Below the pieces are notes generated by a model that saw only the letters and a program-made list of their open reading frames with translations, ran no database searches and was not told the DNA's origin. DNA of 64,000 bases. Source: Candidatus Omnitrophota bacterium (GTDB taxonomy: Bacteria; Omnitrophota; Gorgyraeia; Gygaellales; Profunditerraquicolaceae). Location: NCBI GenBank assembly GCA_025453395.1, contig JALOQK010000001.1:166313-230312 (forward strand). Direction: 5' to 3'. Both the position numbers and the translations under genes were made by a program. Below, one piece after another: positions 4,258 through 53,300 of this stretch (position 1 is its first letter; each line of letters opens with the position of its first letter).

Positions 4258-4348
4258 TTTAGCTAAAAATTCAGAGCGAAAAACTAAAAACCATAATTCA
4301 AAACTCAAGATTTTTAATTTTACGCTATCGTTTTACGCTTTGCGCTAA
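4258..4348. repeat. Copy A of an ~90 bp MITE/REP-like intergenic element
   Basis: It shares ...gcgaaaaaCTAAAAAcc-ATAATTCAAAA-TTTTTAATTtTACGCTaTcGTTTTaCGCTTTgCGCT with the copies at 4851-4985, 7738-7832 and 41424-41527. It ends exactly at the Lrp stop codon. Confidence 0.6.
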
Positions 4349-4830
4349 TATGATATTGCTATCCTCTGATTCTCATCTTTGTGTTTTAGAATAACCCCGT
4401 CTTCCTTGTATTTCTTCAAAAGAAAGTGAGTTGCCGTCCCGCGCACATGTTCCGCGCAGGAAAGTTTTTCCGAGACAAAACGCGCAACTGTCTGTAAATC
4501 TTTGCCTTCAACGATTAAAAGCAGGTCATAAGTTCCGGAGATCAGATAACAGCTTGCCACCTCCGGAAAAGAATAGATGCGTTCCGCTATTTTATCAAAA
4601 CCTAAGTCTTTTTGCGGGACGATATTCACCTCAATTAACGCTCTTACTTGCACTTCAGCATCTTTAACTATCTCGCGATTAATTACTGTTTTGTATTTAA
4701 GAATGACCCCGTCTTTTTCATATTTTTTTATGGTTTTCTTAACCGCATCAGGCTTTTTCTTGAGCATCTTGGCAATATCCTCTACTGAAGCACGCGCGTC
4801 TTTCTCTAGAATTTCTAAAATCTCATCCAT
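4345..4830 (-). CDS. Lrp/AsnC family transcriptional regulator
   Basis: 161 aa with an N-terminal HTH (SVEDIAKMLKKKPDAVKKTIKKYEKDGVI) and a RAM-like C-terminal domain. Confidence 0.7.
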   Translation of the reverse strand: MDEILEILEKDARASVEDIAKMLKKKPDAVKKTIKKYEKDGVILKYKTVINREIVKDAEVQVRALIEVNIVPQKDLGFDKIAERIYSFPEVASCYLISGTYDLLLIVEGKDLQTVARFVSEKLSCAEHVRGTATHFLLKKYKEDGVILKHKDENQRIAISY

Positions 4831-4850
4831 ATAAACCCCCCTTGTTGGAG

Positions 4851-4985
4851 AAAAAAACTAAAAACCAAAATCCCAATAGCATCAGAAGCGAAAAGCTTAA
4901 AGCGAAAAATGCAAAACTATAATTCAAAATTAAAAATTTTTAATTCTACGCTGTAGTTTTACGCTTTGCACTTTAAGTTTTTAGC
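4851..4985. repeat. Copy B of the MITE/REP-like element
   Basis: Same core, with an aagcgaaaag...aaagcgaaaaa left arm and a TACGCTgTaGTTTTACGCTTTGCac right arm. Its right end encodes the last ~10 aa of NadE (KAKNLKCKA). Confidence 0.55.
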
Positions 4986-5702
4986 TTTTAAATAACATAT
5001 TTTCGGCCCTTGCCTCTTATGCAAAGAACAGGCCATCATTTTCTTTACCTTATCTACTTTTTGCTTAGAGGTCTTTGGTTTACTTTTATTCTCCATACAT
5101 TCAAGTATGCCATCAAGTTCATTATAAGTAATCCCCATTTCGCCTTCATCGGTCTGGCCCGGCCAAAGCCCGGCAGTAGGGGCCTTGGTGATAATCTTTT
5201 CGGGAATCCCCATTTCCCAAGAAAGGCGCCTAACATCTTTTTTCAGCAAATCTGCTATGGGCAGGATATCTGTTCCTCCGTCGCCATATTTAGTAAAATA
5301 CCCCACGCTTAATTCTGATTTATTGCCTGTTCCGGAAACTAAATACCCGTAGGTATTGGCAAAATAATACAAAGTCATCATCCTTAAGCGCGGTTTCAAA
5401 TTTCCTAAGGCTAATTTGTTGCCTTTGGGCAAAGCATGAAAAAATAATTTATAAACTTTTGATAAATCTACGATCTTATAAGAGATCCCAAGCGCCTTAG
5501 CAGTAAGAAGCGCGTCTTTTAGATCTTGAGGGTTACTTTGTATGGGCATCATCAATCCTAAGACTTTATTTTTCCCTACCGCCTCTTTTGACAATGCTGC
5601 CACAAGCGCGGAATCTATCCCGCCAGACAAGCCTAGAATGATACCCTTGGCACCAGCCTGTTTAACTTGGCTGCGCATCCAATTTATAATCTTCTTTTTC
5701 AT
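4959..5702 (-). CDS. nadE: NH3-dependent NAD+ synthetase
   Basis: PP-loop motif LGLSGGIDSALVAAL and a KYGDGGTDILPIADL block, with a length typical of NadE. The C-terminus extends into repeat B. Confidence 0.75.
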   Translation of the reverse strand: MKKKIINWMRSQVKQAGAKGIILGLSGGIDSALVAALSKEAVGKNKVLGLMMPIQSNPQDLKDALLTAKALGISYKIVDLSKVYKLFFHALPKGNKLALGNLKPRLRMMTLYYFANTYGYLVSGTGNKSELSVGYFTKYGDGGTDILPIADLLKKDVRRLSWEMGIPEKIITKAPTAGLWPGQTDEGEMGITYNELDGILECMENKSKPKTSKQKVDKVKKMMACSLHKRQGPKICYLKAKNLKCKA

Positions 5703-6955: not shown

Positions 6956-7723
6956 TTATCCATATCTACCGGTAATATATTCTTCAGTGCGCCTTTCTTT
7001 AGGTTTAGTAAAAATATTGTGCGTTGTATCAAACTCTACCAATTCCCCCAAAAGCATAAAACCTGTATCATCAGAAACACGCGCTGCCTGTTGCATGTTA
7101 TGGGTAACAATTACTATTGTATACCTGGCTTTAAGCTCACGCATTAATTCTTCTATGCGGCTAGTTGCCTGAGGATCAAGGGTGGAACAGGGCTCATCCA
7201 TCAACAATACATCTGGCTTTACCGCAATCAAACGCGCGATACACAAACGCTGTTTTTCCTCCAACGATAAAGATAAGGCGCTTTTCTTAAGCTTATCCTT
7301 TAGGTCATCCCACAATAAAACCGCTTCCAAGCTTTCCTGCACAATCTGGTCCAGTTTGTCCTTAGGCGCATCCATGTGCACTCTTTGGCCAAAAACAATA
7401 TTTTCATATATGGAAAGTGGAAATGGATTTGGACGCTGAAAAACCATCCCTACTTTCTTGCGCAAAGAAACCAAGTCGGCTTTTGCGTCAAGAATGTTTT
7501 CTTGATCAACAACAATTCTTCCTTCTGTACGCACGCCTTCAATCAAATCATTCATACGGTTAAACACGCGCAGCATCGTAGATTTCCCGCATCCCGAAGG
7601 CCCGATAATCGCGGTAATCTTGCGCGCGCCAAAAGCGCAATTCACATTCTTTAGCGCCTGGAAATTTCCATACCACAAATTCAGATTATCTACTTCTATC
7701 TTCGGCGCATCTTTCTTATTCAT
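6956..7723 (-). CDS. pstB: Phosphate ABC transporter ATP-binding protein, paralog with a degenerate ABC signature (LSLEEKQ instead of LSGGQQQ)
   Basis: Walker A GPSGCGKST, Walker B LLMDEPCSTLD, H-loop VTHNM and the PstB-type C-terminal tail. The C-loop reads SALSLSLEEKQRLCIAR. Confidence 0.85.
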   Translation of the reverse strand: MNKKDAPKIEVDNLNLWYGNFQALKNVNCAFGARKITAIIGPSGCGKSTMLRVFNRMNDLIEGVRTEGRIVVDQENILDAKADLVSLRKKVGMVFQRPNPFPLSIYENIVFGQRVHMDAPKDKLDQIVQESLEAVLLWDDLKDKLKKSALSLSLEEKQRLCIARLIAVKPDVLLMDEPCSTLDPQATSRIEELMRELKARYTIVIVTHNMQQAARVSDDTGFMLLGELVEFDTTHNIFTKPKERRTEEYITGRYG

Positions 7724-7737
7724 AAATATCCCGTTCT

Positions 7738-7832
7738 CGAAGCTAAAAATTAAAAGCGAAAAAGGTAAAGCTATAATTCAAAATTTAAAATTTTTAATTT
7801 TACGCTATAGTTTTTCGCTTTACGCTTTACGC
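7738..7832. repeat. Copy C of the MITE/REP-like element
   Basis: taAAAGCGAAAAAggtaaagcTATAATTCAAAATTTAAAATTTTTAATTTTACGCTATAGTTTTTCGCTTTACGCTTTACGCT. Its terminal inverted repeats are AAAGCGAAAAA and TTTTTCGCTTT. It lies between the two pstB genes. Confidence 0.6.
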
Positions 7833-7836
7833 TCTC

Positions 7837-8583
7837 CTATCCAAACTTGCCGCTTATATAATCATTAGTCCTTTGATCATGCGGAGTAGTAAACATTTTC
7901 TCTGTTTTATCCAATTCAACCAATTCTCCATTTAAGAAAAACGCGGTCTTGTCTCCCACACGCGCGGCTTGTTTTACATTGTTAGTCACCAAAATTATGG
8001 TGTATTTTTCTTTTAGCTTTAACATCGCCTCTTCTACCTTAGCTGTAGAAATTGGGTCCAAGCCAGAACAAGGCTCATCAAAAAGAATGACTTCCGGAGA
8101 AACCGCCAATGTGCGCGCGATACATAAGCGCTGTTGTTGCCCGCCGGATAATTTAAATGCTGACTCATTCAAGCGATCCTTAACCTCATCCCAAATATAA
8201 GCTTTCTTCAAGGAATCCTGAACAATCCCCTCCAGGCTTTCATGTTTATTAATCCCGTTCATTCTTGCTCCATAGGCAACATTGTCAAAAATAGATAGCG
8301 GTAACGGCAAAGGCATGGCAAAAACCATCCCGATCTTTCTTCGTATTTCTTCCGCGGACAAGGAGGATAAATCCAAACTATTATATTGCACACTCCCAGT
8401 CATCTTAAAGCCCACCTGAAGATGATTAAGTTTATTTAGCATGCGCAAAAATGTAGTCTTCCCGCTATTAGCTGGCCCGATGATAGTTAATATCTCGCGC
8501 GCATTTACGTCAATAGTCAAATCACGTAAAACATGAGATTGGCCAAACCAAATATTAAGCTTCTTGACGGAAATACTTACCAT
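7837..8583 (-). CDS. pstB: Phosphate ABC transporter ATP-binding protein (canonical copy)
   Basis: Walker A GPANSGKTT, canonical signature LSGGQQQRLCIAR, Walker B ILFDEPCSGLD. Confidence 0.85.
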   Translation of the reverse strand: MVSISVKKLNIWFGQSHVLRDLTIDVNAREILTIIGPANSGKTTFLRMLNKLNHLQVGFKMTGSVQYNSLDLSSLSAEEIRRKIGMVFAMPLPLPLSIFDNVAYGARMNGINKHESLEGIVQDSLKKAYIWDEVKDRLNESAFKLSGGQQQRLCIARTLAVSPEVILFDEPCSGLDPISTAKVEEAMLKLKEKYTIILVTNNVKQAARVGDKTAFFLNGELVELDKTEKMFTTPHDQRTNDYISGKFG

Positions 8584-10291: not shown

Positions 10292-10301
10292 AAAAAACCT
10301 T

Positions 10302-10336
10302 TCAGCTGTCAGCTATCAGCTATCAGCTTTCAGCTA
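10302..10336. repeat. Heptamer minisatellite (TCAGCTN)x5
   Basis: tcagctg tcagcta tcagcta tcagctt tcagcta, followed by aaatacataaaactagaaatcgcaa. A second locus is at 24744-24777. Confidence 0.7.
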
Positions 10337-10359
10337 AATACATAAAACTAGAAATCGCA

Positions 10360-10432
10360 ACCCGACCCCCCTACCCTAAACCCGCAACTCACCCCCACCC
10401 CAGACCCATAACCCGCGCCCCACTACTCACCC
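10360..10432. other. About 73 bp C-rich tract, G-rich on the pst mRNA strand, in the pstS-pstC intergenic region
   Basis: cccgacccccctaccctaaacccgcaactcacccccaccccagacccataacccgcgccccactactcaccc. On the transcribed strand this gives G-tracts of 3-7 G (GGGTAGGGGGGTCGGG etc.), a potential G-quadruplex. Confidence 0.5.
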
Positions 10433-10433
10433 T

Positions 10434-13690: not shown

Positions 13691-15596
13691 GATTTTTCTT
13701 CAGGTGAACCATTAAAATAGAGATTGCAACCGGAGTAACCCCGGAAATACGCGAGGCATGCCCTAAATTCAAAGGCTTCAAATTAATAAGCTTCTCTTTT
13801 ATCTCACGCGAAAGCCCGTTAATTGCTTTATAATTTATTTCTTCCGGAATACGGATTTTTTCAAGGTGCTTGAAACGTTGCACCTGCGCAAGCTGCCGCT
13901 TAATAAAACCGCTATATTTTACCTCAATTTCCACTTCCCGCAAAGCAAAATCGGGAATTTCTGATATCTGCGGGGCAAAACTGCCCAAATCCTTAATCCC
14001 CACTTCCGGGCGCTTCAGGATATCTTCCAAAGACGTTGTTTTTTGCAAGCTTCTGGTGCCTAAACTTTCCAATATTTTGTTTATTTTATCTGCCGGCTTA
14101 ACGCGATGACGATTCAATAAATTTATCCCGCTTATTACAGCCTTCTCTTTGGCTTGTGTTTTATTATACTCTTTTTTGCTAACCAAACCCAAATCAAACC
14201 CATGTTTCCTAAGGCGCAAGTCCGCGTTATCCTCGCGGATAATAAGGCGGTATTCCACGCGCGAGGTAAACATCCGGTATGGCTCCTGGGTGCCCTTGAC
14301 CACCAAATCATCAATCAAAACCCCGATGTAACTGGTGCTTCTATCCAAAATAAACCTTTCTCTTTTTTGACAAGACAAACCGGCATTGATCCCGGCAATT
14401 AACCCAAGACTGGCAGCCTCTTCATAACCGGTAGTGCCGTTGATCTGCCCGGCTAAAAAAAGATTTTTAATGCGTTTGGTTTCAAGCGTAGGAAAAAGCT
14501 GTGTTGGAGAAACCACATCGTGCTCAATGCCATAGCCAAAACGCAATACCTTCGCCTCCTCTAAACCCTCTATCGCATGCAAAAACTTAAGCTGCACATC
14601 TTCAGGAAGGCTGGTAGATAAGCCATTAGGATAAATTTCATTGCCTGCTCTTGCTTGCGGCTCTAAAAATATCTGATGCCTGGCGCGCTCGGGAAAACGC
14701 ACGATCTTATCCTCTATTGACGGGCAATAACGCACGCCGGTAGATTTAATAATGCCGGCGTAAAGAGGAGAACGGTTAAGATTATCGGCAATAATTTTAT
14801 GCGCCTTTTGATTGGTATGGGTAATATGGCAGGCAAGCTGTTTTAGATTTATTTTAGAACTGGAAAATGAAAATGGGGCAGGCGGATTATCGCCTTCCTG
14901 GATGATGGTGCGGGAAAAATCTATTGTGTTTTTATCCAAACGCGGGCAAGTCCCGGTCTTAAAACGCAAAATATCAAATCCCAGGGCCTTAAGGTTGTTT
15001 GATAAATCTATTGCCGCCGGCTCATTGATCCTTCCGGCAGAATGATGCTCTAGGCCAATATGCACTATGCCATTTAAAAATGTGCCCGCAGCGATAACTA
15101 CGCAGGATGAATATAATTCTTCCTTGTCAGTTGTTTTAACCCCGCAAACCTTATCCGCTTGAATAATAAGAGAGGAAACTTGCGCTTCTTTTATTGCCAG
15201 GTTCTTCTGCTCTGATAAAAGCTTGCGCATATATTCATTATACGCGTACATGTCTATCTGGGCGCGGGATGACTGCGCTGCCGGGCCCTTTGAAGAATTC
15301 AATATTCTAAATTGTATCGCGCAAAAATCAGCAGCCTTTCCCATCACCCCGCCAAGCGCGTCTATTTCTTTTACAAGCTGGCCCTTGCCTACTCCTCCGA
15401 TAGCCGGGTTACAACTCATCAAGCCTATGTCCTTGGCGCTTAAAGTAATAATTAAAGTCTGGCATCCCATGCGCGCGCAGGCTATGCTCGCTTCAATGCC
15501 GGCGTGGCCGGCGCCGACGACAATCACATCAAAAAAACATGGGGACGGTTCTGTTTTCTTAAAAACAGAACCGTCCCCTTTATTTTTTTCCTTCAT
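13683..15596 (-). CDS. mnmG: tRNA uridine-5-carboxymethylaminomethyl modification enzyme MnmG (GidA)
   Basis: FAD motif DVIVVGAGHAGIEASIACARMG, MnmG length, and the C-terminal GidA-associated domain. The first ~18 codons are encoded by a palindromic repeat (see findings), so the start is uncertain. Confidence 0.9.
   Translation of the reverse strand: MKEKNKGDGSVFKKTEPSPCFFDVIVVGAGHAGIEASIACARMGCQTLIITLSAKDIGLMSCNPAIGGVGKGQLVKEIDALGGVMGKAADFCAIQFRILNSSKGPAAQSSRAQIDMYAYNEYMRKLLSEQKNLAIKEAQVSSLIIQADKVCGVKTTDKEELYSSCVVIAAGTFLNGIVHIGLEHHSAGRINEPAAIDLSNNLKALGFDILRFKTGTCPRLDKNTIDFSRTIIQEGDNPPAPFSFSSSKINLKQLACHITHTNQKAHKIIADNLNRSPLYAGIIKSTGVRYCPSIEDKIVRFPERARHQIFLEPQARAGNEIYPNGLSTSLPEDVQLKFLHAIEGLEEAKVLRFGYGIEHDVVSPTQLFPTLETKRIKNLFLAGQINGTTGYEEAASLGLIAGINAGLSCQKRERFILDRSTSYIGVLIDDLVVKGTQEPYRMFTSRVEYRLIIREDNADLRLRKHGFDLGLVSKKEYNKTQAKEKAVISGINLLNRHRVKPADKINKILESLGTRSLQKTTSLEDILKRPEVGIKDLGSFAPQISEIPDFALREVEIEVKYSGFIKRQLAQVQRFKHLEKIRIPEEINYKAINGLSREIKEKLINLKPLNLGHASRISGVTPVAISILMVHLKKNHG
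15541..15578. repeat. Palindromic hairpin element, copy 1 (GGGGACGGTTCTGTTTT-ctta-AAAACAGAACCGTCCCC)
   Basis: Perfect 17 bp stem. It is flanked by T7 on the minus strand and by TTTATTTTTTT on the plus strand, giving a terminator-like shape in both directions. It lies inside the 5' end of mnmG, 28 nt after the nrdJ stop. Confidence 0.7.
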
Positions 15597-24344: not shown

Positions 24345-24741
24345 AATGCGCCATAAAATTCATAACATGAAAGCTTTCTTGGTTTTCTTATCCGCTATAA
24401 ATATATTTATAATTGCATTTGCACAAACAAAAGAAATCAATTATAATAGCGCTGAAGAAAGCCGTGATCCTTTTATCCCTTTAGTGGATAATAACGGGAA
24501 CTTGCGCAAAGAGTTTAAGCGGCCGGTTGATGAAGCAAGCATCCCAAAAGTAAACTTAATGGGGATAAGCGACCTCTCCGGAACATTTTACGCGATAATT
24601 GACGGAGAAATGGTCAAAGAAGCAGACACGATCAAAGAGTTAAAAATCGAGAAAATATATTTTGACCGGGTAATTGTAAGTTACGCCGATAAAATATTTG
24701 AATTAAAGTGGGAACAGGAGAAAAATGCAGGGAAAAAATAG
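24334..24741 (+). CDS. pilP: Type IV pilus assembly lipoprotein PilP
   Basis: 135 aa with a signal peptide, an RDPFIPL motif (the conserved PilP RDPF) and a C-terminal beta domain. It lies directly before the secretin gene. Confidence 0.6.
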   Translation: MLNKMRHKIHNMKAFLVFLSAINIFIIAFAQTKEINYNSAEESRDPFIPLVDNNGNLRKEFKRPVDEASIPKVNLMGISDLSGTFYAIIDGEMVKEADTIKELKIEKIYFDRVIVSYADKIFELKWEQEKNAGKK

Positions 24742-26170
24742 TGTCAGCTATCAGCTTTCAGCTTTCAGCTTTCAGCTAAAAACTAAAAAAACAATCGCTA
24801 TAATTACCCTGATCCTATTCTTTATGGGAATGTGCCCGTCTCTTTTACTTTCCCAAGACCAGCAAGAAACAAAAACCGCATCTAATCTTATAAGCCTGAA
24901 TTTGCGCGATGTGAATATTGAAGACGCGCTTAAAGTGATCGCCCAGGCAAGCGGGATGAATGTCATCTTGGATAAAGACGTCAAAGCGACAGTAAATATC
25001 AACCTTAAAAACGTTACCTGGAATACCGCGCTTGACAATATCCTCAAAACCAACCAATTAACCTATAAAATACAGGAAAACATTATCCGGGTGATGACCT
25101 TAGATTCTTTGAAAAAAGAGGACGACACCCTTCCCCTGTCTTTAAAAATCATTTCGCTTAATTTTGCCAGGGCCGATGAAATACAAAAATCATTAACCAA
25201 AATGCTTTCTCCCCGCGGCAATATTGAAATAAACGCCTCCACAAATTCTCTGATCATAAGCGATTCGCAAGAAACATTCCCCAAGCTTGAAGAAGTAATC
25301 TCCAAGCTTGACACCCGCATCCCGCAGGTCATGGTAGAAACCCTGATCGTCAGTTTTAAAGGCAGCAACACCTACCGACAAGGCGTGGATATGACCCTTA
25401 TGAGCAACAAACACGGCACAGACCGCCAATATTGGCAATATCCTGTGGGCGATCAAAACGGAATGGCCGGAGTTATGGATTTTTCCTATGCCAAGCCTAT
25501 TCTATCAGGATTAGACCTAGCCAGCACCTTAAGGCTTTTTTCCGAAGATGCCCGGGTAAACATCCTGGCCAATCCTAAAGTAATGACCCTGGATAACAAA
25601 GAAGCCTCCATAGAAATTCTTGAACAAGTCCCTTATCAATCTCAATCTACCACAGAACAAGGAACCGTGGTCAGCACCTCATTTAAAGATGCTGGCTTAA
25701 AAATATTGGTTACCCCGCATATTACAAAAGATCAGTTTATCTCTTTAGCGGTAAAAGGCGAACACAGTTATATCGCAGCCTACGTTAATAACCAGCCGCA
25801 GATAGATGCCAGAAAAATAGAAACAAATTTCATGCTAAAAGACGGAGAAGTAGCGGTAATCGGTGGTTTACGTAAAAAAGACAAGACTTACACCGTAACT
25901 AAAGTCCCTGTCTTAGGGGATATCCCTTTTATCGGAAAGATTTTATTCAGTAAAATAGTCAAAACAGACGTAGATAATGAATTAATAATTTTTATCTCCC
26001 CGCACATCATGGAAACCAACCTAGCAAGCTCTTCCGAGCAGATAAATTACAAAGGCGCACATGAAGAATTAGTAGGCCTGACAAACAAGAAAAAAGAAGC
26101 ATTAAGAAATCAGGCTATTGAAAATTATTTTCAAACGCAGCAACCGCCTTCCCCAAGAAAGAAGCAATGA
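24725..26170 (+). CDS. pilQ: Type IV pilus secretin PilQ (short form, no AMIN domains)
   Basis: Secretin N-domain (NINLKNVTWNTALDNILKTNQLTYKIQENIIRV) and C-terminal secretin domain (GEVAVIGGLRKKDKTYTVTKVPVLGDIPFIGKLF). The first ~17 codons are the TCAGCTN heptamer repeat. Confidence 0.8.
   Translation: MQGKNSVSYQLSAFSFQLKTKKTIAIITLILFFMGMCPSLLLSQDQQETKTASNLISLNLRDVNIEDALKVIAQASGMNVILDKDVKATVNINLKNVTWNTALDNILKTNQLTYKIQENIIRVMTLDSLKKEDDTLPLSLKIISLNFARADEIQKSLTKMLSPRGNIEINASTNSLIISDSQETFPKLEEVISKLDTRIPQVMVETLIVSFKGSNTYRQGVDMTLMSNKHGTDRQYWQYPVGDQNGMAGVMDFSYAKPILSGLDLASTLRLFSEDARVNILANPKVMTLDNKEASIEILEQVPYQSQSTTEQGTVVSTSFKDAGLKILVTPHITKDQFISLAVKGEHSYIAAYVNNQPQIDARKIETNFMLKDGEVAVIGGLRKKDKTYTVTKVPVLGDIPFIGKILFSKIVKTDVDNELIIFISPHIMETNLASSSEQINYKGAHEELVGLTNKKKEALRNQAIENYFQTQQPPSPRKKQ
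24744..24777. repeat. Heptamer minisatellite (TCAGCTN)x5, second locus
   Basis: tcagcta tcagctt tcagctt tcagctt tcagcta, followed by aaaactaaaaaaacaatcgcta. The flank is similar to the 10302 locus. It is translated as SYQLSAFSFQL at the pilQ N-terminus. Confidence 0.7.
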
Positions 26171-36591: not shown

Positions 36592-37854
36592 TTACCTCTT
36601 TTTATTGGTCGAACTGGCTTCTTGAGGATTTTTCCAAAATTCCCTGATCACATAATAAGCCTGACGGGGAATCCTTTTATTTAAACCCTGCCCGCCGGCA
36701 GACTGTGCGCCTTCTGTTTCTTCGGACAATCCCACGATCCCAAACCATTCCTCATTCATATTCTTATTCCCGGGCGCCTGGTTATCAAAATAATAACTTC
36801 CGTTAGACCAGTTGGAACCGGTGTCATGAACTTTCCAGCTGCCGGGGTTAGATTCATTATTCTTCCACCATTCATCAGTCCATTCAAACATAAAACCGCC
36901 CAAACAATTTCCTTCTCCTTGGCTGCTGGAATAAAGATTGTTGTAGATCTGCCGCCACTGTGATTCCAAAAAGAATGCCTGCATCTGCTGGTCTTCTTTT
37001 TGGTTGTAGGCGTCATAACAATCTGCGCCAAACTCAGATAAGAATACCGGAAGGTCAAAAGTTGTCTTTAAAGAGCTAAAGAAATTACCGAAACTTTTCC
37101 CTCGGTAAATAATACAAGCAATAATATCAATGTCTTTACAAACCAAAGAAGCAGTATCAAGGCCAAACAATTCACCGTTTCCTAAGGCAACCGGATGGGC
37201 TGTGTCAATTTTCTTTATTTCCCGGGCTATATCATTAACATACGAATAATAAATCTTGGCGCGCATAGATTGCTGGGCACGGGGGTCTTTTTCATTGTCT
37301 ATTTCTTCTGTGGACCACGGGTTAACCCTGCCCAAACAGGAATAATTATTTTCGTTACCCAAGATCCAGCACAACACCCCGGGTTCATCTTTGTAAAGGC
37401 GCACCATTTCCAAGACTTCATTCTTTATTTTTTTCTGGAATTCTTGATTTCCGTAGAATGGACAGGGATAATTCCAAAACCCCAGCCAGCTTCCTAACGC
37501 GGTGCGAATACCAAATTTCTCATAGAGATCTCTTATGACAAGCCTGACTTTCTCCGGGTCTTCGCCTGATTCATACAAGCGCACTGCGTTAATGCCCATA
37601 TCCTGCATTAGTTTGCCGTCTACCAACCACGGCTTATGGGGGTCCTGATACCATTCATATTCATGGCCTTGCCCCACAGAAACAGGATTATAGCAAACCC
37701 CTTTGATAACAAATGGTTTTCCATCTACCATTAATTGATACCGGCTATTCGTTGATTTTTTTATATAAACAGAGGGCTTAGGCGCAGCAAAAGAAACACC
37801 AAAAGATACCGCCAAAAAGAACAGAAACAAGGGGACGGTTCTATTTTTCAGCAT
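36592..37854 (-). CDS. Secreted clan GH-A (TIM-barrel) glycoside hydrolase
   Basis: Signal peptide MLKNRTVPLFLFFLAVSFGVSFAAP. Catalytic blocks GINAVRLY, WILGNENNY (acid/base NE) and FLSEFGADCYD (nucleophile E). The ORF track extends it to 37929 through the hairpin repeat; the start is placed at the ATG in the hairpin loop (37854). Confidence 0.7.
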   Translation of the reverse strand: MLKNRTVPLFLFFLAVSFGVSFAAPKPSVYIKKSTNSRYQLMVDGKPFVIKGVCYNPVSVGQGHEYEWYQDPHKPWLVDGKLMQDMGINAVRLYESGEDPEKVRLVIRDLYEKFGIRTALGSWLGFWNYPCPFYGNQEFQKKIKNEVLEMVRLYKDEPGVLCWILGNENNYSCLGRVNPWSTEEIDNEKDPRAQQSMRAKIYYSYVNDIAREIKKIDTAHPVALGNGELFGLDTASLVCKDIDIIACIIYRGKSFGNFFSSLKTTFDLPVFLSEFGADCYDAYNQKEDQQMQAFFLESQWRQIYNNLYSSSQGEGNCLGGFMFEWTDEWWKNNESNPGSWKVHDTGSNWSNGSYYFDNQAPGNKNMNEEWFGIVGLSEETEGAQSAGGQGLNKRIPRQAYYVIREFWKNPQEASSTNKKR

Positions 37855-37900
37855 AAAAATAGAACCGTCCCCTTTATTCGAACCGTCCCCTTTATTCGAA
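37831..37900. repeat. Palindromic hairpin element, copy 2 (GGGGACGGTTCTATTTTT-cagcat-AAAAATAGAACCGTCCCC), plus a duplicated cgaaccgtcccctttatt tail
   Basis: Perfect 18 bp stem. The loop contains the probable GH start codon (the minus strand reads ...TATTTTTATGCTGAAAAATAGAACCGTCCCC). Confidence 0.7.
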
Positions 37901-39159: not shown

Positions 39160-39200
39160 AATTTTGAATTTTTAGTTTTTAGTTTTGAACTTTTAATCCC
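39160..39200. repeat. Partial, inverted copy (E) of the MITE/REP-like element, left half only
   Basis: The reverse complement ttaaaagttcaaaactaaaaactaaaaattcaaaattagag matches the ctaaaaac...ataattcaaaa half of copies A-D. Confidence 0.4.
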
Positions 39201-39205
39201 CCTTT

Positions 39206-41527
39206 CTACCTCCAAAGCTTTTGATATAAATAATAAGATTTGCGTAAATGCCTCAAGAATGGGCTATCTTTGCCTTGGCCTTGCGAACAAAGGCCAAACC
39301 ATTCTTCATAGTAATATCCGTCCGGAAACGGGCCTATAGCGATACCTTTAGTATCATGCAGGCTTGGCTCATAAGCCTTCCACCATTCATCCACCCACTC
39401 AAAAACTACTGCCCCGATAGAATTACCGGCGCCTTCTTGAAAAGCCATATTCATAGCGATATCTTCCCATGCTGCCTTATGGTAGTTAGCCTGAAGCTGT
39501 TCGCCTTCTTCTGGTAACCTGCCTTGAGAATAAGCAGGACAGCCGTATTCTGTGATAAATACCGGGACATCTGCTGCTTCTTTTACCTGCTTCCACAAAA
39601 ATCCAAAGCCATAATCCCCCCTGTAGGCATTAATGCCGAAAATGTCCACAGCTGGGGCGTTCTTAGAGAAACTATTTAAGTATAGCACATCTCCGTTGCA
39701 AATAGCAACCGGATGGGCTGTGTCAATAGATTTGATCATTTCCGCCGCCTGGTTGACAAAAGAAAAATAAGCGTCCGGCTCTTTGTCCGCGTTGCAAGCA
39801 TAACCATAGACATTTTCATTTCCCAAAAGCCAAAACAAAATATAAGGCTCATTTTTATATTCTTCCACCATTTTTCTCACAGATGCGAGCATATTCTTTT
39901 TATGCTCCGGGTTCTTGTAATCTGTCCCCGGATTCCAGGAGGCCCCTGAACCAATGGCATATTTACCCAAGAAATCCCCCATGATTACTCTTATGCCGTA
40001 TTTCTCATACATCTGGCGCAATATTTGTTTATCCGGCTGAAATGGCTGATGATATATCCTCATGGTATTTACGCCCATCATCTTCATCAGCCTAAAATCC
40101 CCAACTGAAGGCTCATTGGAATCTTGTTTGCCGTTATTATTACGGTCCACATAGGCGTCATACGGCCCATCAATCTTACCGTTTTTATTAAAATCACTCT
40201 TCATCCAATCACTCAATGTTTTGTCATCCGGGGATTCGCCTATCTTTGTGGGGGCATAAGTGATGCCTTTTATAATATAAGGCCTGCCATCAACTATCAT
40301 CTGCCAATCGCCGTTCTTATACTGGATAAGATGCACCTTGCCTTTACCGCGGCGCCTTTTAATGTTCAATAAATCATACGCCGGGCGAGGGGTAATCTTT
40401 TGCAGAAAGGTCACCTTTTCAAACTTGCCCGGGTTGGCAATCACAATGTCATTAGCAACACTATTATCATAACCATTTATTATCTTAATATCCAGGCCTG
40501 TAAGCCGATAGCCGATTTGAGGGTTGCTGCGCAAAAGAGAAATTACTTTACTTGCGGCGGCCTGCCCTATGTACCAAGGCGTATGCCAATAGGTCCAACC
40601 GTAACTGCCCGGAAAATGCACCACAATGGCGTAATAACATTTGATCGCCTGCTTGATTAACCCCGACTTTTCAAACATCAATCCTGTATAAAACAGTTTG
40701 GTGGCCGGCGATTCCGGAGCAGTAGCCCATTTTAAGAAAGCCGCCTCCAGGTCCGGAGAATGCACAAAATCCCAGTGGCTTCCCTCAAGCCGTTTCTCTT
40801 TAAGGGCCTTTTTATACTCCGGGTCCCAGCGCACAGAAGTAGTATTAGGATAAATGCCTTCGCCAACAGCCGCGCTTAATCCCTCTTGATCATTAATCAC
40901 ATATTTATAATCTTTTGTGCCCGCCCCAATAAATTGGCCATATTTAGCATAATCCACAAATTCTTCCCTGCCCGCGTCATAAAGGATTATTTTTGTGACC
41001 AACTGGCTGACTTGAGGTTTTTGCTCTTGCCCAATAACACCTGTATTGATTTTCTCAAGGCTCTTTTTACTGGCGTCAGCAATCTGCCAATACCATCCGC
41101 GCGGATCCCAGCTTTGCGCAAAAGAATATTTATCAATAATAAGCTGAAAGGTTTTCTTGGCATCCTCAATTTTATCCTGGCGCATATAACTTTCAGCCTG
41201 GATAAAATAGGCCACCGCCACATCATTTAGCGCCTGGACGGAAGCGATTTCTTTATCTTTAGGAAGGCTTGTTAATGACGCCTGCTCTTGGGCCGCTTCT
41301 TGCTTATATAACTGGATACACTGATTGGTATATTGGAAAGTCGCCTCTACATCATACTTACCATGCGCTTCCCAAGCTTTAGTAATTAATTCACTGGAAG
41401 ATGGCTTATCTTCTGCAAGCGCAAAATGTAAAGCGAAAAACGCAAAACCAAAACTTAAAACTAAAAGTTTTAAATTTTGAATTATAATTTTACGCTTTGC
41501 GCTTTTCGTTTTTCGCTGAAATTTCAT
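39206..41527 (-). CDS. Secreted multidomain clan GH-A glycoside hydrolase with a helical/TPR-like N-terminal region and a Ca-binding (dockerin/EF-hand-like) loop
   Basis: C-terminal TIM-barrel blocks GVNTMRIYHQ, WLLGNENVYGYACN and FITEYGCPAYS are homologous to the 36592 GH. It also carries DFNKNGKIDGPYDAYVDRNNNGKQDSNE, a DxNxNGxID-type repeat. The N-terminal 40 aa are encoded by repeat D and look like a signal peptide (KRK-LLVLSFGFAFFALHFALA-ED). Confidence 0.7.
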   Translation of the reverse strand: MKFQRKTKSAKRKIIIQNLKLLVLSFGFAFFALHFALAEDKPSSSELITKAWEAHGKYDVEATFQYTNQCIQLYKQEAAQEQASLTSLPKDKEIASVQALNDVAVAYFIQAESYMRQDKIEDAKKTFQLIIDKYSFAQSWDPRGWYWQIADASKKSLEKINTGVIGQEQKPQVSQLVTKIILYDAGREEFVDYAKYGQFIGAGTKDYKYVINDQEGLSAAVGEGIYPNTTSVRWDPEYKKALKEKRLEGSHWDFVHSPDLEAAFLKWATAPESPATKLFYTGLMFEKSGLIKQAIKCYYAIVVHFPGSYGWTYWHTPWYIGQAAASKVISLLRSNPQIGYRLTGLDIKIINGYDNSVANDIVIANPGKFEKVTFLQKITPRPAYDLLNIKRRRGKGKVHLIQYKNGDWQMIVDGRPYIIKGITYAPTKIGESPDDKTLSDWMKSDFNKNGKIDGPYDAYVDRNNNGKQDSNEPSVGDFRLMKMMGVNTMRIYHQPFQPDKQILRQMYEKYGIRVIMGDFLGKYAIGSGASWNPGTDYKNPEHKKNMLASVRKMVEEYKNEPYILFWLLGNENVYGYACNADKEPDAYFSFVNQAAEMIKSIDTAHPVAICNGDVLYLNSFSKNAPAVDIFGINAYRGDYGFGFLWKQVKEAADVPVFITEYGCPAYSQGRLPEEGEQLQANYHKAAWEDIAMNMAFQEGAGNSIGAVVFEWVDEWWKAYEPSLHDTKGIAIGPFPDGYYYEEWFGLCSQGQGKDSPFLRHLRKSYYLYQKLWR
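41424..41527. repeat. Copy D of the MITE/REP-like element
   Basis: gtaAAGCGAAAAAcgcaaaaccaaaacttaaaactaaaagttttaaattttgaATTATAATTTTACGCTTTGCGCTTTTCGTTTTTCGCTg. The terminal inverted repeats are conserved. Confidence 0.55.
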
Positions 41528-47329: not shown

Positions 47330-50300
47330 TTACAACCAAATCGCTGCCCTGCGCGGATAATTTCTATCTGCGTTGATTAACCAAAAATAATATTTATCAA
47401 AATCCATGTCGTGTTTATCTCTCGCAAAACGCACAAACCCGCCGCGGTTTAAGCCTCGCCTGGATATCAATTTCTGCCCGTCCCCGGGAGCGCCGTCGCG
47501 GTTGGAAAAAGCGTCTTTTTGGAAAACATCCTCATTGCGTGTACCTGTTCTCAACAAAATAAGATTCCTGTAGAATAATTCCTGCAGCAGGCTGACCGGA
47601 TGGGAAAAATACTTTCTTTGCGTAGTATCCGGGAATCCTTTCATAAAATATTCAGTAAGATATTTTATGGCGCTGCGCACTAAATCTTTACTCTGACTAC
47701 TTAGGTCAACCCGCCAAAAACAAACATCTAAAGATACGGTTTCTTCTTTTTCATTTTTCTTCTCAATAAATTCAATCCTGACTAAAAGTTCATTTTTAAG
47801 CCACGCCTCAAATATATTATTATGGAATTCTTTAATTTCTACTTTCGTTCCAGAAAATTCTATAACTTCAACGCGCTTAGGTAAAGTCATGCTATCTGAA
47901 TCTGTGTCGGGAGGCATAGCTCTATTCTTAGAGAAAATTGCCATCAGGCCAAGCGCTACTATAATTGTTAATAATACGGGTAAAAGGTAAGGTGGGAATG
48001 AAACAAATTGAGTATGCTGCACCGGCGCTCCGGTAGGCTGGGCTTGCGCCAGATACGCTCCAGCGGCAAAAAGGTCTTTCGCGCCTAAGGCAATAAACGC
48101 TGCGGTAAAAGGAATAAGCATATTACGGATAACCGGGCTACTGTTTGTCCCAAGCGCGCCGCCGATTTTTTTGTCCTGCGCCGGACTGCCGGATACCTCC
48201 TTAGAATTAAGTATCGTATCCCCGAAATCGAATTTCTTGCCTGTTTTATTCGCCTCAACAACGCTGGTAAAATATGGCCTAAATTGTTCGCACGAAGAAA
48301 AACGATAGCCTATCCTGTCTAAACTGATTATATGAGCAATCCCGGATGAACCCAGCATACGCAACATCGCGTTGGACATACCCATAAACAATGACTGATT
48401 TGCTTTCTGATAAATGTAATATTGATTTTTTGGCCGCGCGTGAAAATAAAAATCCGCGATATGATTAACTGACGGAAAAAGAAGAAATCTTTTTATATCT
48501 TCAAATATAATTTTGAGGCGCTTATCTGTATTCCCAATACTATCCTCAAAGGACCCGGCAATACCTCTTACTTTAGCATCTTTATCTTCGGCATAAACGC
48601 ATCCTTCAAAAAGAGAGTGGTCAAATGTCGGAGGGATATAAATACAATTACCGTCTTTGCCAGTAAGCATAATCCTATTAAGCTCTATAATTCTTTTTTT
48701 AAAGTCTAAAAAGTTAGTTAAGGCGCCGTTGTGTATTTCTTTTAATAACTGCACGAATTCTTCGCGCACCTGTTTTTGATTATGGAAATAATTTTTTTCG
48801 TTTTCTGATGCCGGGCCTGCGGCTTGCGCCTTACGATCGCACACTGCTTCATTCCAGGGAGCCTCTAAGGCGTTCTCCCAATCAAACTGCTTAATATTAT
48901 GTTTTCCTTGAAATAACTTCTGAAGGTAACGGAAGGCTTTTATCGCTAGGACAAATAGAAAAGGCACGGTCATCACCGGATACAGCGAGGCGCGCCCTAA
49001 ATGCGAATCCGGCGGGCCGGTAGACTGAGCTTGCGTCAGGTATGCGCCTGCGACAACCACCGCGCCAAGGCAAACTACACCAAGCATTGTGCAAACTTCT
49101 CCGAGGCCTTTTTTAGCGCCGCCGGGAGCGCCAACAAATTTGATATTCTGTTTTCCTTTTTCTGCCGCCTCATCCAATGCCCTCTTGGCAAAAAGCAAGG
49201 CGCTTTTATCAGTAGTGCCTTCTTTAAGCGCTTGCCGCAATAAATATAAAAGCCACGGCCAATCTTTAATCTTTACGACAAGCCCTATAATGCCAGATAA
49301 GGTTTTACCGTGTAGATCGCTGTGATAAATAATCATTTTCTTAACATATTCTTTACGGTCTAATTTGCCAAAAATCCTCTCCCATTCTTCAATCCTAAAA
49401 TCATCACCGCGGTTGTCTACAGTAACAGGTACAGGTTTTAAGCGTTTGGCAACCTTGAATTCATCCGTCTTCTGAATGGCGATTTGTTTAACCTCAACAA
49501 CTGCCTCATCTTGTTTTGCTTGAATCTTCAACCCAGACGGCGCGCCCACTGGCTCTTGCTGCGCTTTTTTTTCTTTTAATATAGCGTTAAACTCTTTTCT
49601 TAATATTATAAATTCGCCTCCGGTATTTTCTTTGCAGAGCTCAACGAGTAGGTCTCTTACTTTTTCTCTCCCCTGACTTAATTCTTTTCTTGAAGAGAAA
49701 TTACCCGCCTTAAACTTAAGTAAGGCTTCTTTTATCCGGGCGGACAGGCTTTCTATTTCAGGTGAAGTTTTACGCACCCCTGTCTCCGGTAAGGTTGCGA
49801 TTATGCCTTTTTTACGCAGTTCCTCCACAGGGTCAATACCGGCCTTACGCAAGCGCGCTAATATATTGGAAAAAGTAGAGGGGTGTTTTTTCATGTTCAT
49901 TTTATCCCGAATTTCCATAAGCGGGAATTTCTTACTTCCTTTATCTTTTGCTACTTCTTCGGCGGCTTTAATAAACTTAGCCAAAGAAACTTTACTCCCC
50001 CTTTCTGCGCTGCTTACGCCTTCTAAAATAACCCCCTTTTCTTTCTTCCATCGCCACAAGGTGCAATACTTAAAGCCTGCTAACTTAGCTAATTGCGTAA
50101 GCAATATTTTTTCACCGGGATGATTTTTCAGGAAATCTGCCGTAATTTGTTCTAATCGAGCTTTTCTATCTTCCCTGCCTTCTGCCCCGCTTCCATCGGC
50201 AAATAGATAACGAAATTTTCCGCCATAAAAAGGATGCCCGATTAGATTTTTATCTTGCGCCCCCAGATAATTCGGCCCCAGCCTGCCGCCAATTCCTAAA

Positions 50301-53300
50301 TCAGGGCCTGATTGAGAATAATGAGCTTTATCCCCGTTACATCCCTTCTCAATAGGATGGATAACCGCCTTGTAACACATCCTAAGCGGTAAATTTAATT
50401 CTAAATACCAAGATAGCGCCATAGAGTGGCCTTTGGACCTTCTCGGAAAGTATTTACCATAATAAAAAAATCCACTATTTGTTTTTAGCGATGGCATAAA
50501 TCTAAAGGTATTAATTCTGGGAGACATGCCCCATAGGGCATTAACAAAAGAATCCATAAGCTTACTGCCAATGCCATTTCTCTGGAAAGCTGGTAAAATA
50601 GCCAATTCTTGTAAATTGGCTATAGTTTCTTTATAAATAGAAAAACGGATAAACCCTACAATATCACCTTTTTCAACCGCCAAATAAACATAGTTATCTA
50701 ATAAGCGCTTTTTATACTCTTCTACTAAATGCTGCGCAGGATTAACTATTTTGGGTTTAGTCGCGGGATTAGAAAAAACTAATTTTTCTATACAGAGCAT
50801 CGCTCTTGCGGTTTTATCTAAGCGTTCAGGGCCGAGCTTAACGATATCCGCCGCGTTATAAATCCCGTCATCTAAATTAGCCCTTAATATACCGGCTTTT
50901 CTGACGACAGATGATTTATTAAGCAGATACTCGCCATAAGACAATATTGCAATGAATATAAATACGATAAGAAATGGCAATTTGCTTAGCCATGTATCAA
51001 GATGGTTAGCCGCCAAAAGCGCCGCAAGGCCGATGAACACAGGAGATTGTAAAACAACGCCTTCGCCGGAAGAAGGTGTTTGTTTACTCCCGGGCGCACC
51101 GCTGGGAAAATACTGGCGCCGCAACCCTCCTACTTGTTCTTGCGCTAATGTTTTCATTTGGGAATTACTTAAATTTGAAAAAGCGCCTTGCCCGAGAAAA
51201 CCCGCCTTACTATACTCATTAAGGAATCTGTATGTTATATATAATTTCCTTTCCGGGCTTGAGAATAACCAATAGAAAAATGTTAATAACGTACCCGGCC
51301 TGCCCTGATTAATCCTTTCAACAATCCCCTCGCAATACTCATCAGCAAATTTTAATATTCTCTGCGAGTCACTAATAAAACCCAAGAATAGAGGATCCTT
51401 TCTTAATCTGAAAATAATGCTCCCCCATTTTTCCTGAAGCGCGTTGCCGAAAACTAACGGGCTATGATCAACAAGATACATATCGGCAAAACTGACATCG
51501 CCGCGGTAATCAAAAGCTAATGTCGTACCCGGATAATAACGCTTCTTCGTTTCGCTAAGTTCGCATTGCTCAAAAACAGAATCAGGATACACATCTAAAG
51601 CTCTGCCAATCCTGCTTAACTGGCTTATCCTCAGCGCCCTTCTTATTACTTGTTCATTTTTTTCAACAAAACTGTGTTGCATTTGAAAACTAACTCCCAA
51701 ACCACGGCTTGATAGTTCCTGAAAGAAATTCCAAGTCGTCTGGCCAGAGGTTATATTGATTAATGTATTAATGATAATATCCGCTTCGGGGTAATACCGG
51801 ATAACTGCCTCCGCGAGGTTAGCTATCTTGATAAGCGAAATTGCCGGCCTCGCCAAATGGCTATCATCCAAAGAAATTCTAAAGGTAAACTTACTATCAC
51901 TACCTCTTGATTTCTTAATCATGAGCACAAATTCTCGCGCTTTTTCTGGAGTAACCATCAAAGAAGCATTGGTAGTTAACGAACAAACATTACGCTCAGC
52001 GATTATTTCATGGAGGTCTTTGCGTAAAGAAAGCTCTCCTCCGGAAATATACAAAGAGGGGTCCCTTATGCCCATGCCGCTGAAATCTGTCGCGCGGTAG
52101 AAATCCACCAAAACCATTTCTCTTTTCCTCCCGCTGTCGCAGGAAAACATACAGATATCGCAACCACTGTTACAGGTAAGCGAAAGAACACAAAGAATCC
52201 TTTTAGGAACCCAATTTGAATACGGATTAATTCGAATATCAAGGTTGGCGAACTGTTCTCTTCTTAAAAACTCTACCCGCTGTTGAAAACTATAATCTAA
52301 ATCAGAGATGTCTTCAATAACCTGCGACCCAAAAATCTCCCTGACTTTAGACGCCCCGCTCCCATCGGCAAACAGATAACGAAACTTTCCGCCATAAAAA
52401 GGATGCCCGATTAAATTTTTATCGCGCGCCCCCAGAAAATTCGGCCCCAGCCTGCCGCCAAAATCAATATCAATATCGGATAACGACGGCAGATGATGAA
52501 AAAGCGAACTCCCCGTCGCACCCAAACCCCGCCCGCCCGCGCCGCTGGCATTCGCCTTATTTACCGTTTCTAACCTCGTAGGTTGAATCGTTTGCTTCTT
52601 TATCTTTGGCCGCTCCGGGCTGCAGGCCGGCGAAGTGAGAGCGCCGCGATCAATATTACTATCTGCTAGGGACACTTCTGGCGAAAGTTGTTGCGGTGTT
52701 TTAGCTTTAGAGAAAACGGTCTGGTTAATTCGGTAAATTCTCCAGGGTTTAATATAAGATCTCCAATAGCTAAAGCAGGTATTCGGCATTATGTTGGCCG
52801 CCCATTCAATATCACGCGACAGATGAGGCTGTCTGGTCGTCTGTTCGCTGACAATAAGATATCCGCCGCGTAAAACCTGGATTTTGACCTTTTTCCAGAA
52901 ATAACTTTTTTTGGAAATACGCCCGGCCATCCCCGGCCCCTGAACATAAACAATCCCGTATTTGTTTTGATTTTGCATAAAATCATTAATCTGATATAAA
53001 ATCTTTATATTTTGTCTTCCCAAAAGTGCCCGCATCTTATCGTTTAATCCGATATTTATTTCCAATAAAGCAGGATCAATAACCTTAACGGCCATTTCCC
53101 CCAAGGCTTCCCCCACCCAGTTAAAATATTCGCTTAATTGTTTGATAATTCCCTGAATATCCTGCTTATCGGGAATACTCACAGACATTTCCTTCTGAAC
53201 AAAATTATCGTTAAAAATAAAACAGCGCGCCGAAGGAAACAAGTTCACCAAGGCCATAAAACTTACCGCGTCATGACCGGCGCAGGGATAATAAACATCC

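Follow-up and report, generated by a model that had tools for sequence, protein, structure and literature searches.

The DNA analysed here is a stretch of 64,000 nucleotides from a Candidatus Omnitrophota bacterium (contig JALOQK010000001.1, positions 166,313 to 230,312; the whole stretch is hereafter called the window), in which four copies of a palindromic repeat of about 100 nt, named A to D, are present. These copies are probably members, devoid of an open reading frame (ORF), of a family of hairpin-ended cassettes which normally carry a gene for a four-helix-bundle protein (PF05635/TIGR02436). Judged from the sequence, copy D really does appear to encode the predicted signal peptide of a GH2-like protein (glycoside hydrolase, GH).

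All repeat positions refer to the whole 64-kb stretch. The repeat search yielded a four-member family of 101 nt with 75–80% identity (4260-4360, 4886-4986, 7740-7840 and 41417-41517), the members of which also pair with each other as inverted repeats and are, hence, imperfect palindromes. Copy A (4258-4346), copy B in the nadE/Lrp spacer (4884-4989) and copy C in the spacer between two pstB-like genes (7735-7835) are arms-only heptamer palindromes and were delimited by the repeat search, folding, the arm pattern and an arm hidden Markov model (HMM), for copy C also by Pfam. Copy D (41412-41521; repeat search, arm pattern and arm HMM) is a heptamer palindrome located wholly within the 5' end of the GH2-like gene. 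A degenerate 31-nt pattern derived from one arm matched all four copies exactly (0.00 matches expected from 100 shuffles), and the arm HMM recognised copies A to D with E values of 1e-11 to 1e-12. The preliminary description of this DNA had listed five loci. Four of them are solid, but the half copy claimed at 39160-39200, a heptamer-like tract which is A-rich on the transcribed strand and has no partner arm, was not significant (arm HMM E 0.42, 7 bits) and was dropped. The proposed folding was borne out, since all four copies form long hairpins; on the transcribed strand, A, B and D surpass shuffles (z of -2.2 for A, -3.9 for B and -3.5 for D), while C is weaker (-0.6). In copy B, an extra partial arm (4848-4876) pairs with 4975-4990 and forms a nested outer stem. 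Rfam contains no such family and gave no match in the window at the gathering threshold; below this threshold, only generic matches to miRNA-precursor hairpins occurred. A tRNA scan and the Rfam scan detected neither tRNA nor rRNA genes in the window.

The arms are arrays of degenerate 7-nt units, with AAAGCGN in one arm and its complement in the other. One arm can be written as AAAGCGN AAAAACN AAAACCA TAATTCA AAAYTNA, and the opposite arm is complementary with deviations that are compatible with G-U pairing. The autocorrelation at lag 7 amounted to 0.58 (0.29–0.31 in shuffles) with a second peak at lag 14, and the excess at lag 7 corresponded to z = 12 for the window copies and z = 54 for 53 hairpins of the family. 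This 7-nt periodicity, which was overlooked in the preliminary description, is the key to the identity of the element. The inverted termini AAAGCGAAAAA/TTTTTCGCTTT named there are indeed present, but they represent internal repeat units, and the true ends of the element are AGC(G/T)...(A/C)GCT. Copies A to C possess a common centre (ATAATTCAAAAYTNAARATTTTTAATTYTACGCT) at three unrelated loci, which indicates that arms-only elements multiply as whole units; copies from Atribacterota have another common loop.

A species-representative genome collection was scanned with the arm pattern taken from the window, and at least 120 loci in other genomes were obtained, so that the prediction of further copies beyond the window proved correct. 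Among the matches listed, about 73 belong to Atribacterota, 10 to Omnitrophota, 14 to eight lineages of the candidate phyla radiation (CPR) and 4 to Planctomycetota, with single ones in Schekmanbacteria, Aminicenantes, Aerophobetes and others. Conservation extends to the flanks and to positions left free by the pattern; for example, copy A equals the Atribacterota consensus AGCGAAAAACTAAAAACCATAATTCAAAACTC at every free position. Genes in the fetched loci were called with a crude longest-ORF caller; on this basis and among the matches listed, all 48 complete arms-only hairpins lie outside gene bodies, in spacers or overlapping a gene end only (35 between co-directional, 4 between divergent and 3 between convergent genes). 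Several upstream genes at the listed loci run into the A-rich arm and thereby end with K/R tails, and in one other Omnitrophota protein (L011) a hydrophobic leader is encoded by the element. The polarity of the arms relative to the host genes, as read from the GAATTAT marker in arms-only copies, showed no significant preference (14 vs. 7).

The connection to a gene is provided by longer relatives. In L008 (Atribacterota), L051 and L093 (both CPR) and L052, an ORF of about 115 aa is enclosed by the same A-rich and T-rich arms. These ORFs belong to PF05635 (Pfam E 1e-21 to 2e-22; TIGR02436 1e-25); the closest solved structure of the cassette protein is 2RLD, and a weak similarity exists to Avd of diversity-generating retroelements. 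The four proteins are 58–67% identical despite their different phyla. A full cassette has about 460–480 bp and comprises a 5' arm of 6–7 A-rich heptamers (AAAGCGN...), the gene for about 115 aa and a complementary T-rich 3' arm. At four loci (L008:7657, L058, L085 and L096), only the last 20–31 codons are left between intact arms, and these loci form a deletion series toward the arms-only form. L151, which apparently stems from a related Omnitrophota contig, represents a full cassette; its 5' arm, GCGTAAAGCGTAAAGCGAAAAAC, agrees with copy C.

A metagenome scan with an alignment of the protein yielded 80 loci, and nearly all of them showed an A-rich arm directly 5' and a complementary T-rich arm directly 3' of the ORF. 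In 70 distinct metagenome cassettes, the lag-7 excess was above 0.2 in 76% of the flanks as compared to 1.4% of control segments (p = 2e-56), and the duplex of upstream and downstream flanks had -26 kcal/mol vs. -14 kcal/mol for shuffles (p = 9e-13). Wherever the cassette ORF is located between two co-directional genes, it is oriented like these (40 sense, 0 antisense). The median gaps to the neighbouring genes (64 and 68 nt) are about one arm long, and the cassettes begin at or a few bases after the upstream stop codon, in operon spacers.

Other subfamilies of PF05635 are accompanied by other heptamers, such as GTGATGA/TCATCAC in L101, AGAAGGT/CGACCTT in L012 and GGTAATC in L124. Additionally, genes annotated as 'four helix bundle protein' are present within operons on plasmids of cultured organisms and are bordered by heptamer arrays, for example in Nostoc punctiforme (CAATTCG x4, ORF, GCGAATT x4), Nostoc C052 (AATTCGT, ORF, ACGAATT), Planktothrix (AATCCCC/AATCGTA, ORF, TACGATT/GGGATTT) and Euhalothece (a TCACTGG array by the four-helix-bundle gene). 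Arrays also occur in Gloeocapsa, Chlorohelix, Monoglobus, Bernardetia, Chondrinema, Treponema and Anabaena. Fixed flanks of 65 nt were compared for 14 PF05635 genes of other subfamilies and cultured organisms, and inverted complementarity was clear in 8 (z below about -2.3) and very strong in 6 of these; arrays in the remaining 6 were short, offset, one-sided or direct. By eye, heptamer arrays were seen near 14 of 14 genes. As a side observation, several of the operons that harbour TIGR02436 genes on plasmids (L210-L220) are related to defence. The gene (4HB) was seen in the orders hsdS-4HB-hsdR (Monoglobus), helicase-4HB-N6-methylase (Chlorohelix) and DUF1156-4HB-Swt1-HEPN (Gloeocapsa), between cas2 and cas1 (Anabaena) and between an RND adaptor and an RND permease (Chondrinema).

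If the cassette reading is right, loss of the PF05635 gene would leave a palindrome of about 100 nt with a family-specific centre, and this arms-only palindrome would itself multiply within genomes. On the transcript, the arms would pair into an AU-rich duplex of 30–45 bp. RNA duplexes of this length are substrates of RNase III, which would cut the duplex and split the polycistronic mRNA at the element. As ribosomal RNA (rRNA) intervening sequences (IVSs) of this architecture are excised by RNase III, a cleavage of the operon transcript would be expected at each copy. We infer that the copies are processed by RNase III, by analogy to these sequences, that the arms-only form is mobilised in trans and that the element is essentially selfish or neutral. 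The strict sense orientation of the ORF-containing form fits an element that either depends on read-through transcription by the host or inserts by an RNA-linked step. The four-helix-bundle family is related to Avd of diversity-generating retroelements (PMC10053308), and an insertion assisted by reverse transcriptase is therefore conceivable; no reverse transcriptase gene was noticed in the cassette flanks, of which no systematic scan was made.

The genes next to the copies are all encoded on the minus strand, with the copies on their non-coding strand side. Pfam supported the neighbours that the preliminary description had named at these gene boundaries: NAD synthase, two ABC_tran (pstB-like) proteins followed by PhoU, MFS_2 and Glyco_hydro_2_C, beside AsnC/Lrp and the aminotransferase. 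Read on the transcribed strand, every window copy begins at the upstream stop codon or at most about 25 nt from it, and copies A to C occupy the spacer up to the next ribosome-binding site. The two adjacent pstB-like genes (6956-8583) lie upstream of phoU, an arrangement that is kept in L128.

Copy A fills the spacer between Lrp and the aminotransferase. With its last bases, it reaches into the Lrp stop codon (4345-4347), with which it shares the AG of TAG, and it ends 12 nt before the ATG of the aminotransferase (4245). This ATG, followed by MKNLISKK, is common to four orthologues and represents the conserved start; the 21-aa N-terminal extension formerly ascribed to copy A is an artefact of ORF calling from an upstream TTG. 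The C-terminus of NadE is in fact supplied by copy B, from whose arm a 9-aa tail (KAKNLKCKA) and the stop codon are read (4959-4988, minus strand), but the case is trivial. The tail exists because an indel of 2 nt put the ancestral TAA out of frame; orthologues end with ...GPAICFI*, and the Pfam domain NAD_synthase stops at residue 233 of 247.

Copy D is more informative with regard to coding sequence, and its proposed role as the source of a signal peptide was upheld. Codons 1-38 of the GH gene (MKFQRKTKSAKRKIIIQNLKLLVLSFGFAFFALHFALA; 41414-41527, minus strand) are encoded by copy D and comprise the predicted signal peptide, the prediction being based on features of the leader and on the alignment of orthologues. 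The ATG is located at 41527 with an AGGAG Shine-Dalgarno sequence 8 nt upstream, and there is no alternative start before the conserved mature sequence. The leader shows eight K/R among residues 5–13, a hydrophobic core of 18 residues and A-L-A before EDKPSS, at the position where orthologues with short canonical leaders have ...FA|Q(E/D)KPSSGEL. If a copy lies in frame at a gene start and is translated, a Lys/Arg-rich n-region would result from the A-rich arm, a Phe/Leu/Ala-rich h-region from the T-rich arm and the A-L-A cleavage motif from the terminal ...GCGCTTGCA.

Among 120 orthologues of the GH, the N-termini are hypervariable. A leader of the copy D type is present in several of them (P0011, P0019, P0016 and P0002), and many other leaders resemble translated A-rich/T-rich repeats, for example MTKSKIQNKSKIP...FVICHLCFVICH. 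The comparison suggests that the signal peptide at the same GH start may have been replaced repeatedly by different repeat families. At the DNA level, the leaders of four such orthologues can be aligned with copies A to C from the intergenic spacers, and a long hairpin is retained in five diverged GH orthologues (z from -2.5 to -6.7). The nucleotide identity to the window is 0.83–0.88 in the leader and element as compared to 0.68 in the remaining gene, and within the leader it exceeds the amino-acid identity. Among the 36 bp of the consensus stem, 5 pairs are compensatory. That orthologues share the repeat-encoded terminus, which might have marked it as ordinary conserved protein sequence, therefore holds for the GH on the surface only; the conserved feature is the palindrome. 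Further leaders among the orthologues (P0001-P0120) look like other heptamer palindromes (KSKIQNKSKIP...FVICHLCFVICH; CNVKSVKCKV...LHLTPYTLH). With the GH leader, the origin of a signal peptide from a palindromic repeat can be tested on a concrete example, and the same gene start appears to carry other repeat-derived leaders elsewhere.

The history of the sites was traced at orthologous loci of Omnitrophota, where Lrp is 83–84% identical and the gene order pstB-pstB-phoU-...-nadE-lrp-aminotransferase is kept, while the spacers differ. The spacer between Lrp and the aminotransferase is empty in L129 (25 nt), contains a TCAGCTT-type palindrome in L128 and harbours AAATCCG/AAACTCG-type palindromes in L126 and L127. 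Between nadE and lrp only 13–15 nt are present in L127 and L128, and the pstB/pstB junction, which is occupied by copy C in the window, measures 0 nt in L128. In Atribacterota, a spacer compared between orthologous sites is empty in one species (21 nt, L080), holds the AAAGCG palindrome in three and another heptamer palindrome in a further one. The spacer repeats are thus subject to presence or absence and replacement and are no ancient fixed feature. With orthologous sites either empty or filled and a conserved centre at non-orthologous loci, the repeats behave as a dispersed, miniature, non-autonomous-like element, as had been supposed.

These data also bear on the view that the copies are cis-acting RNA hairpins which the host has selected in operon spacers, for example as RNase III processing or stability sites that uncouple cistrons. 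The hairpins would then be kept for their function, and the sequence likeness between copies would be secondary. We consider this unlikely, even though long heptamer hairpins that differ in sequence occupy the Lrp-to-aminotransferase spacer of four lineages, the hairpin persists, with compensatory changes, within the coding sequence of the GH, and among the arms-only copies the sense-strand hairpin is the more stable one in 23 cases and the less stable one in 10 (p = 0.016). Empty spacers are well tolerated by close relatives (L129 25 nt, L128 0 nt, L080 21 nt), near-identical arms occur in unrelated operons of different phyla and flank a gene of their own, and the copies overlap gene ends haphazardly, which gives rise to the K/R tails.

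A second explanation regards the copies as a classical MITE (a miniature transposable element with inverted repeats), i.e. a deletion derivative of a transposase-encoding insertion sequence that is mobilised in trans via its terminal inverted repeats. Small size, AT-richness, palindromic structure, intergenic multi-copy occurrence and the filled or empty state of orthologous sites would all agree with it. However, the flanks of the four copies (ATTT|AATA, CAGA|TTTA, TCGA|CTCC and TGCA|GAAA) share no direct repeat, so that target-site duplications are lacking; at about 200 loci, no transposase was detected in the vicinity of the arms or between them, and the longer relatives with the same ends encode the PF05635 protein instead. 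A MITE is therefore hardly probable, and the derivation from a transposase-type mobile element, which had been considered for this DNA, was not supported.

It is just as improbable that the palindromes are structures independent of the gene and that the PF05635 gene is the mobile part, which homes into hairpin loops, with the window copies as unoccupied targets. Known IVSs sit at the tips of hairpins, namely helices 25 and 45 of the 23S rRNA (PMC4990558), there is hardly any spacer between the ORF and the arms, and arms-only sites outnumber gene-bearing ones by 48 to 4 among the genome loci listed. On the other hand, truncated ORF remnants between intact arms speak for decay in place, AAAGCG-type arms travel together with the 58–67% identical proteins across Atribacterota, CPR and Omnitrophota, and other PF05635 subfamilies have heptamer units of their own, which fits arms that are part of the element.

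A transcription terminator or insulator, or simple-sequence repeats made in place by slippage, can practically be dismissed: the hairpin with its A-rich 5' flank and U-rich 3' side at gene boundaries and the varying number of array units between loci are in line with these ideas, but a scan for terminators and promoters showed no enrichment at the elements and no terminator-like site at any copy, the stems are AU-rich instead of short and GC-rich with a U tract, and slippage cannot account for different heptamers that follow one another in an identical order, together with an identical centre, at unrelated loci and in different phyla. Furthermore, copies lie between co-transcribed genes (the pstB-like pair and the neighbourhood of an ATP-synthase-type operon), one is inside an ORF, and the four hairpins between divergent genes mentioned above also disagree with termination. 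Owing to the missing signature and to these positions, the terminator or insulator role suggested in the preliminary description is unlikely.

Several observations weigh against the interpretation of the copies as gene-less cassettes. The window itself contains no PF05635 gene, so that the link to the cassette rests on other genomes. The taxon counts of the arm scan are biased by the window-derived pattern and the partial listing, and the labels Eudoraea, Gammaproteobacteria and Dehalococcoidia among its matches probably reflect binning errors. Neither the arm pattern nor the protein occurred in 2.9 million viral contigs, and no vector for transfer across phyla was found there. The insertion mechanism is not evident, as neither target-site duplications nor, in about 200 loci, a recombinase were seen. 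The persistence of different palindromes at the same orthologous spacer might reflect selection for the hairpin itself instead of a selfish nature. As a hint of RNase III cleavage, the bias of hairpin stability towards the sense strand is modest and could be produced by strand composition, and full cassettes show no such asymmetry between sense and antisense.

Beside the family of copies A to D, further repeats were noticed in the spacers. Tandem arrays of TCAGCT[A/T/G] with 5–6 units each (10294-10349 and 24740-24798) represent a second heptamer family in the window; in the spacer of the first one, a G-rich tract (GGGT/GGGG; 10350-10433, minus strand) is located directly upstream of the AGCTGA[A/T/C] array. 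Spacers of Atribacterota (e.g. L005:4293-4736, L032:5879-6352 and L078:530-876) are mosaics of AGCGTAT, GGTTAGC, TATCTCG and AGTTGCA units and also hold GC hairpins such as TGTAGGGGTCGGATTTATCCGACCCG; the lengths of orthologous spacers differ by hundreds of nt between species. In L047 (5860-5920), the two arms of an AAAGCG-type element enclose a different widespread repeat, GTCATTCCCACGAAAGTGGGAATCCAGG. A transposase between two arms 2 kb apart in L047 was rejected as a candidate, since these arms belong to two separate elements around an ordinary gene. A GC-cored palindrome flanked by A/T runs (AAAACAGAACCGTCCCC / GGGGACGGTTCTGTTTT) is present in three copies in the window (15531-15588, 37816-37883 and 62652-62679), which look like a repeated bidirectional terminator hairpin. 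Direct repeats of 50–120 nt with 73–90% identity (50184-50303, 52353-52537, 54055-54108 and 56855-57099) suggest a locally duplicated gene family.

The repeats are also of relevance for genome assembly. Most contigs with an Lrp orthologue (P0123-P0240) are shorter than 2 kb, and copy B marks the exact end of the Logan contig L001, which indicates that the repeats break short-read assemblies. A major cause of repeat-driven assembly breaks and of spurious ORFs in metagenome-assembled genomes of Omnitrophota, Atribacterota and CPR is thereby explained.

In comparison with known systems, the elements resemble MITEs with respect to their miniature, non-coding, palindromic and multi-copy nature, their terminal inverted repeats (the whole element is an imperfect palindrome), their descent from a longer gene-bearing relative and their presence/absence polymorphism, but they differ in the missing target-site duplication and in a longer relative without transposase. 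As with BOX elements and bacterial interspersed mosaic elements (BIMEs), spacers are mosaics of short modules, and in Atribacterota the arm combines with other modules; the modules themselves are different. Repetitive extragenic palindromic (REP) sequences and BIMEs are GC-rich and associated with RAYT transposases, and a REP is a palindrome of 20–40 nt with a GTAG/CGTC head. The element described here has about 100 nt, is AU-rich and lacks such a head; no systematic search for RAYT was made.

Palindromic repeats inside ORFs were described for Rickettsia palindromic elements and for the enterobacterial RU/ERIC sequences (PMC2759123). Like these, copy D is a palindrome that is translated in frame as part of a protein; the sequences are unrelated, however, and copy D represents a complete N-terminal predicted signal peptide and not an internal surface segment.

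Heptamer repeats are known as cyanobacterial short tandemly repeated repetitive (STRR) sequences, as TAACTGA repeats in Beggiatoaceae, Cyanobacteria and Bacteroidetes (PMC4679880) and as GGGAATC repeats of Xanthomonas, including about 70 inverted pairs (PMC4692102); neither of these two reports mentions an associated gene. The 7-nt unit, the intergenic location, often just upstream of start codons, the puzzling distribution across phyla and the inverted pairs that are able to form stem-loops are shared with the elements analysed here. In contrast to the near-perfect tandem repeats of these families, for which no gene was described, the tandem units in intergenic DNA are here degenerate and ordered, are always paired in a palindrome and are tied to the PF05635 gene in the full-length form.

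The closest resemblance is to the ORF-containing IVSs of 23S rRNA. In Coxiella burnetii, the terminal inverted repeats of the IVS form a stem of 28 bp that is cut by RNase III, the S23p ORF lies in the loop, and tandem heptamers adjoin the ORF; excision of rRNA IVSs by RNase III occurs in Coxiella, Leptospira and Salmonella (PMC4990558). In rRNA genes of CPR, ORFs of the type 23S_rRNA_IVP and short insertions without ORF were reported (PMC11270868). The elements studied here share with the IVSs of Coxiella burnetii and Leptospira (PMC4990558) a terminal inverted-repeat stem (about 30 bp there, 30–45 bp here), a PF05635/S23p ORF which lies in the loop and has the same sense as the host transcript, adjacent tandem heptamers, a length of about 430–480 nt, a sporadic spread across lineages for which horizontal transfer is suspected, and short versions without ORF; the ORF is present in the full-length relatives, and the window copies are ORF-less. 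Unlike IVSs, they do not reside in helix 25 or 45 of the 23S rRNA but in spacers of mRNA operons and once in a coding region, their arms consist entirely of degenerate heptamer arrays, and many copies occur per genome. The elements would thus work like rRNA IVSs outside rRNA. No literature was found in which heptamer arrays are connected with PF05635 cassettes beyond rRNA, or in which arms-only derivatives of such cassettes or their exaptation as signal peptides are described, subscription journals being poorly covered by this search.

Tentatively, and with somewhat less than an even chance of being correct as a whole, a broader interpretation can be offered, in which PF05635/TIGR02436 genes and their inverted heptamer arrays constitute one very widespread, unrecognised class of selfish cassettes that includes the rRNA IVSs. 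Such cassettes, always oriented in sense, would invade the transcribed spacers of Cyanobacteria, Bacteroidota, Chloroflexota, Spirochaetota, Bacillota, Atribacterota, CPR and Omnitrophota; the STRR, TAACTGA and GGGAATC repeats as well as the palindromes of the window would be their ends or footprints, and the pentameric protein would recognise the 7-nt units. If this is true, A-rich/T-rich arms would provide a recurrent raw material for new signal peptides. The rRNA IVSs with their orphan S23p/Avd-like protein would then be tied to the over-represented intergenic heptamer repeats as one type of element, which could be studied in operon spacers.

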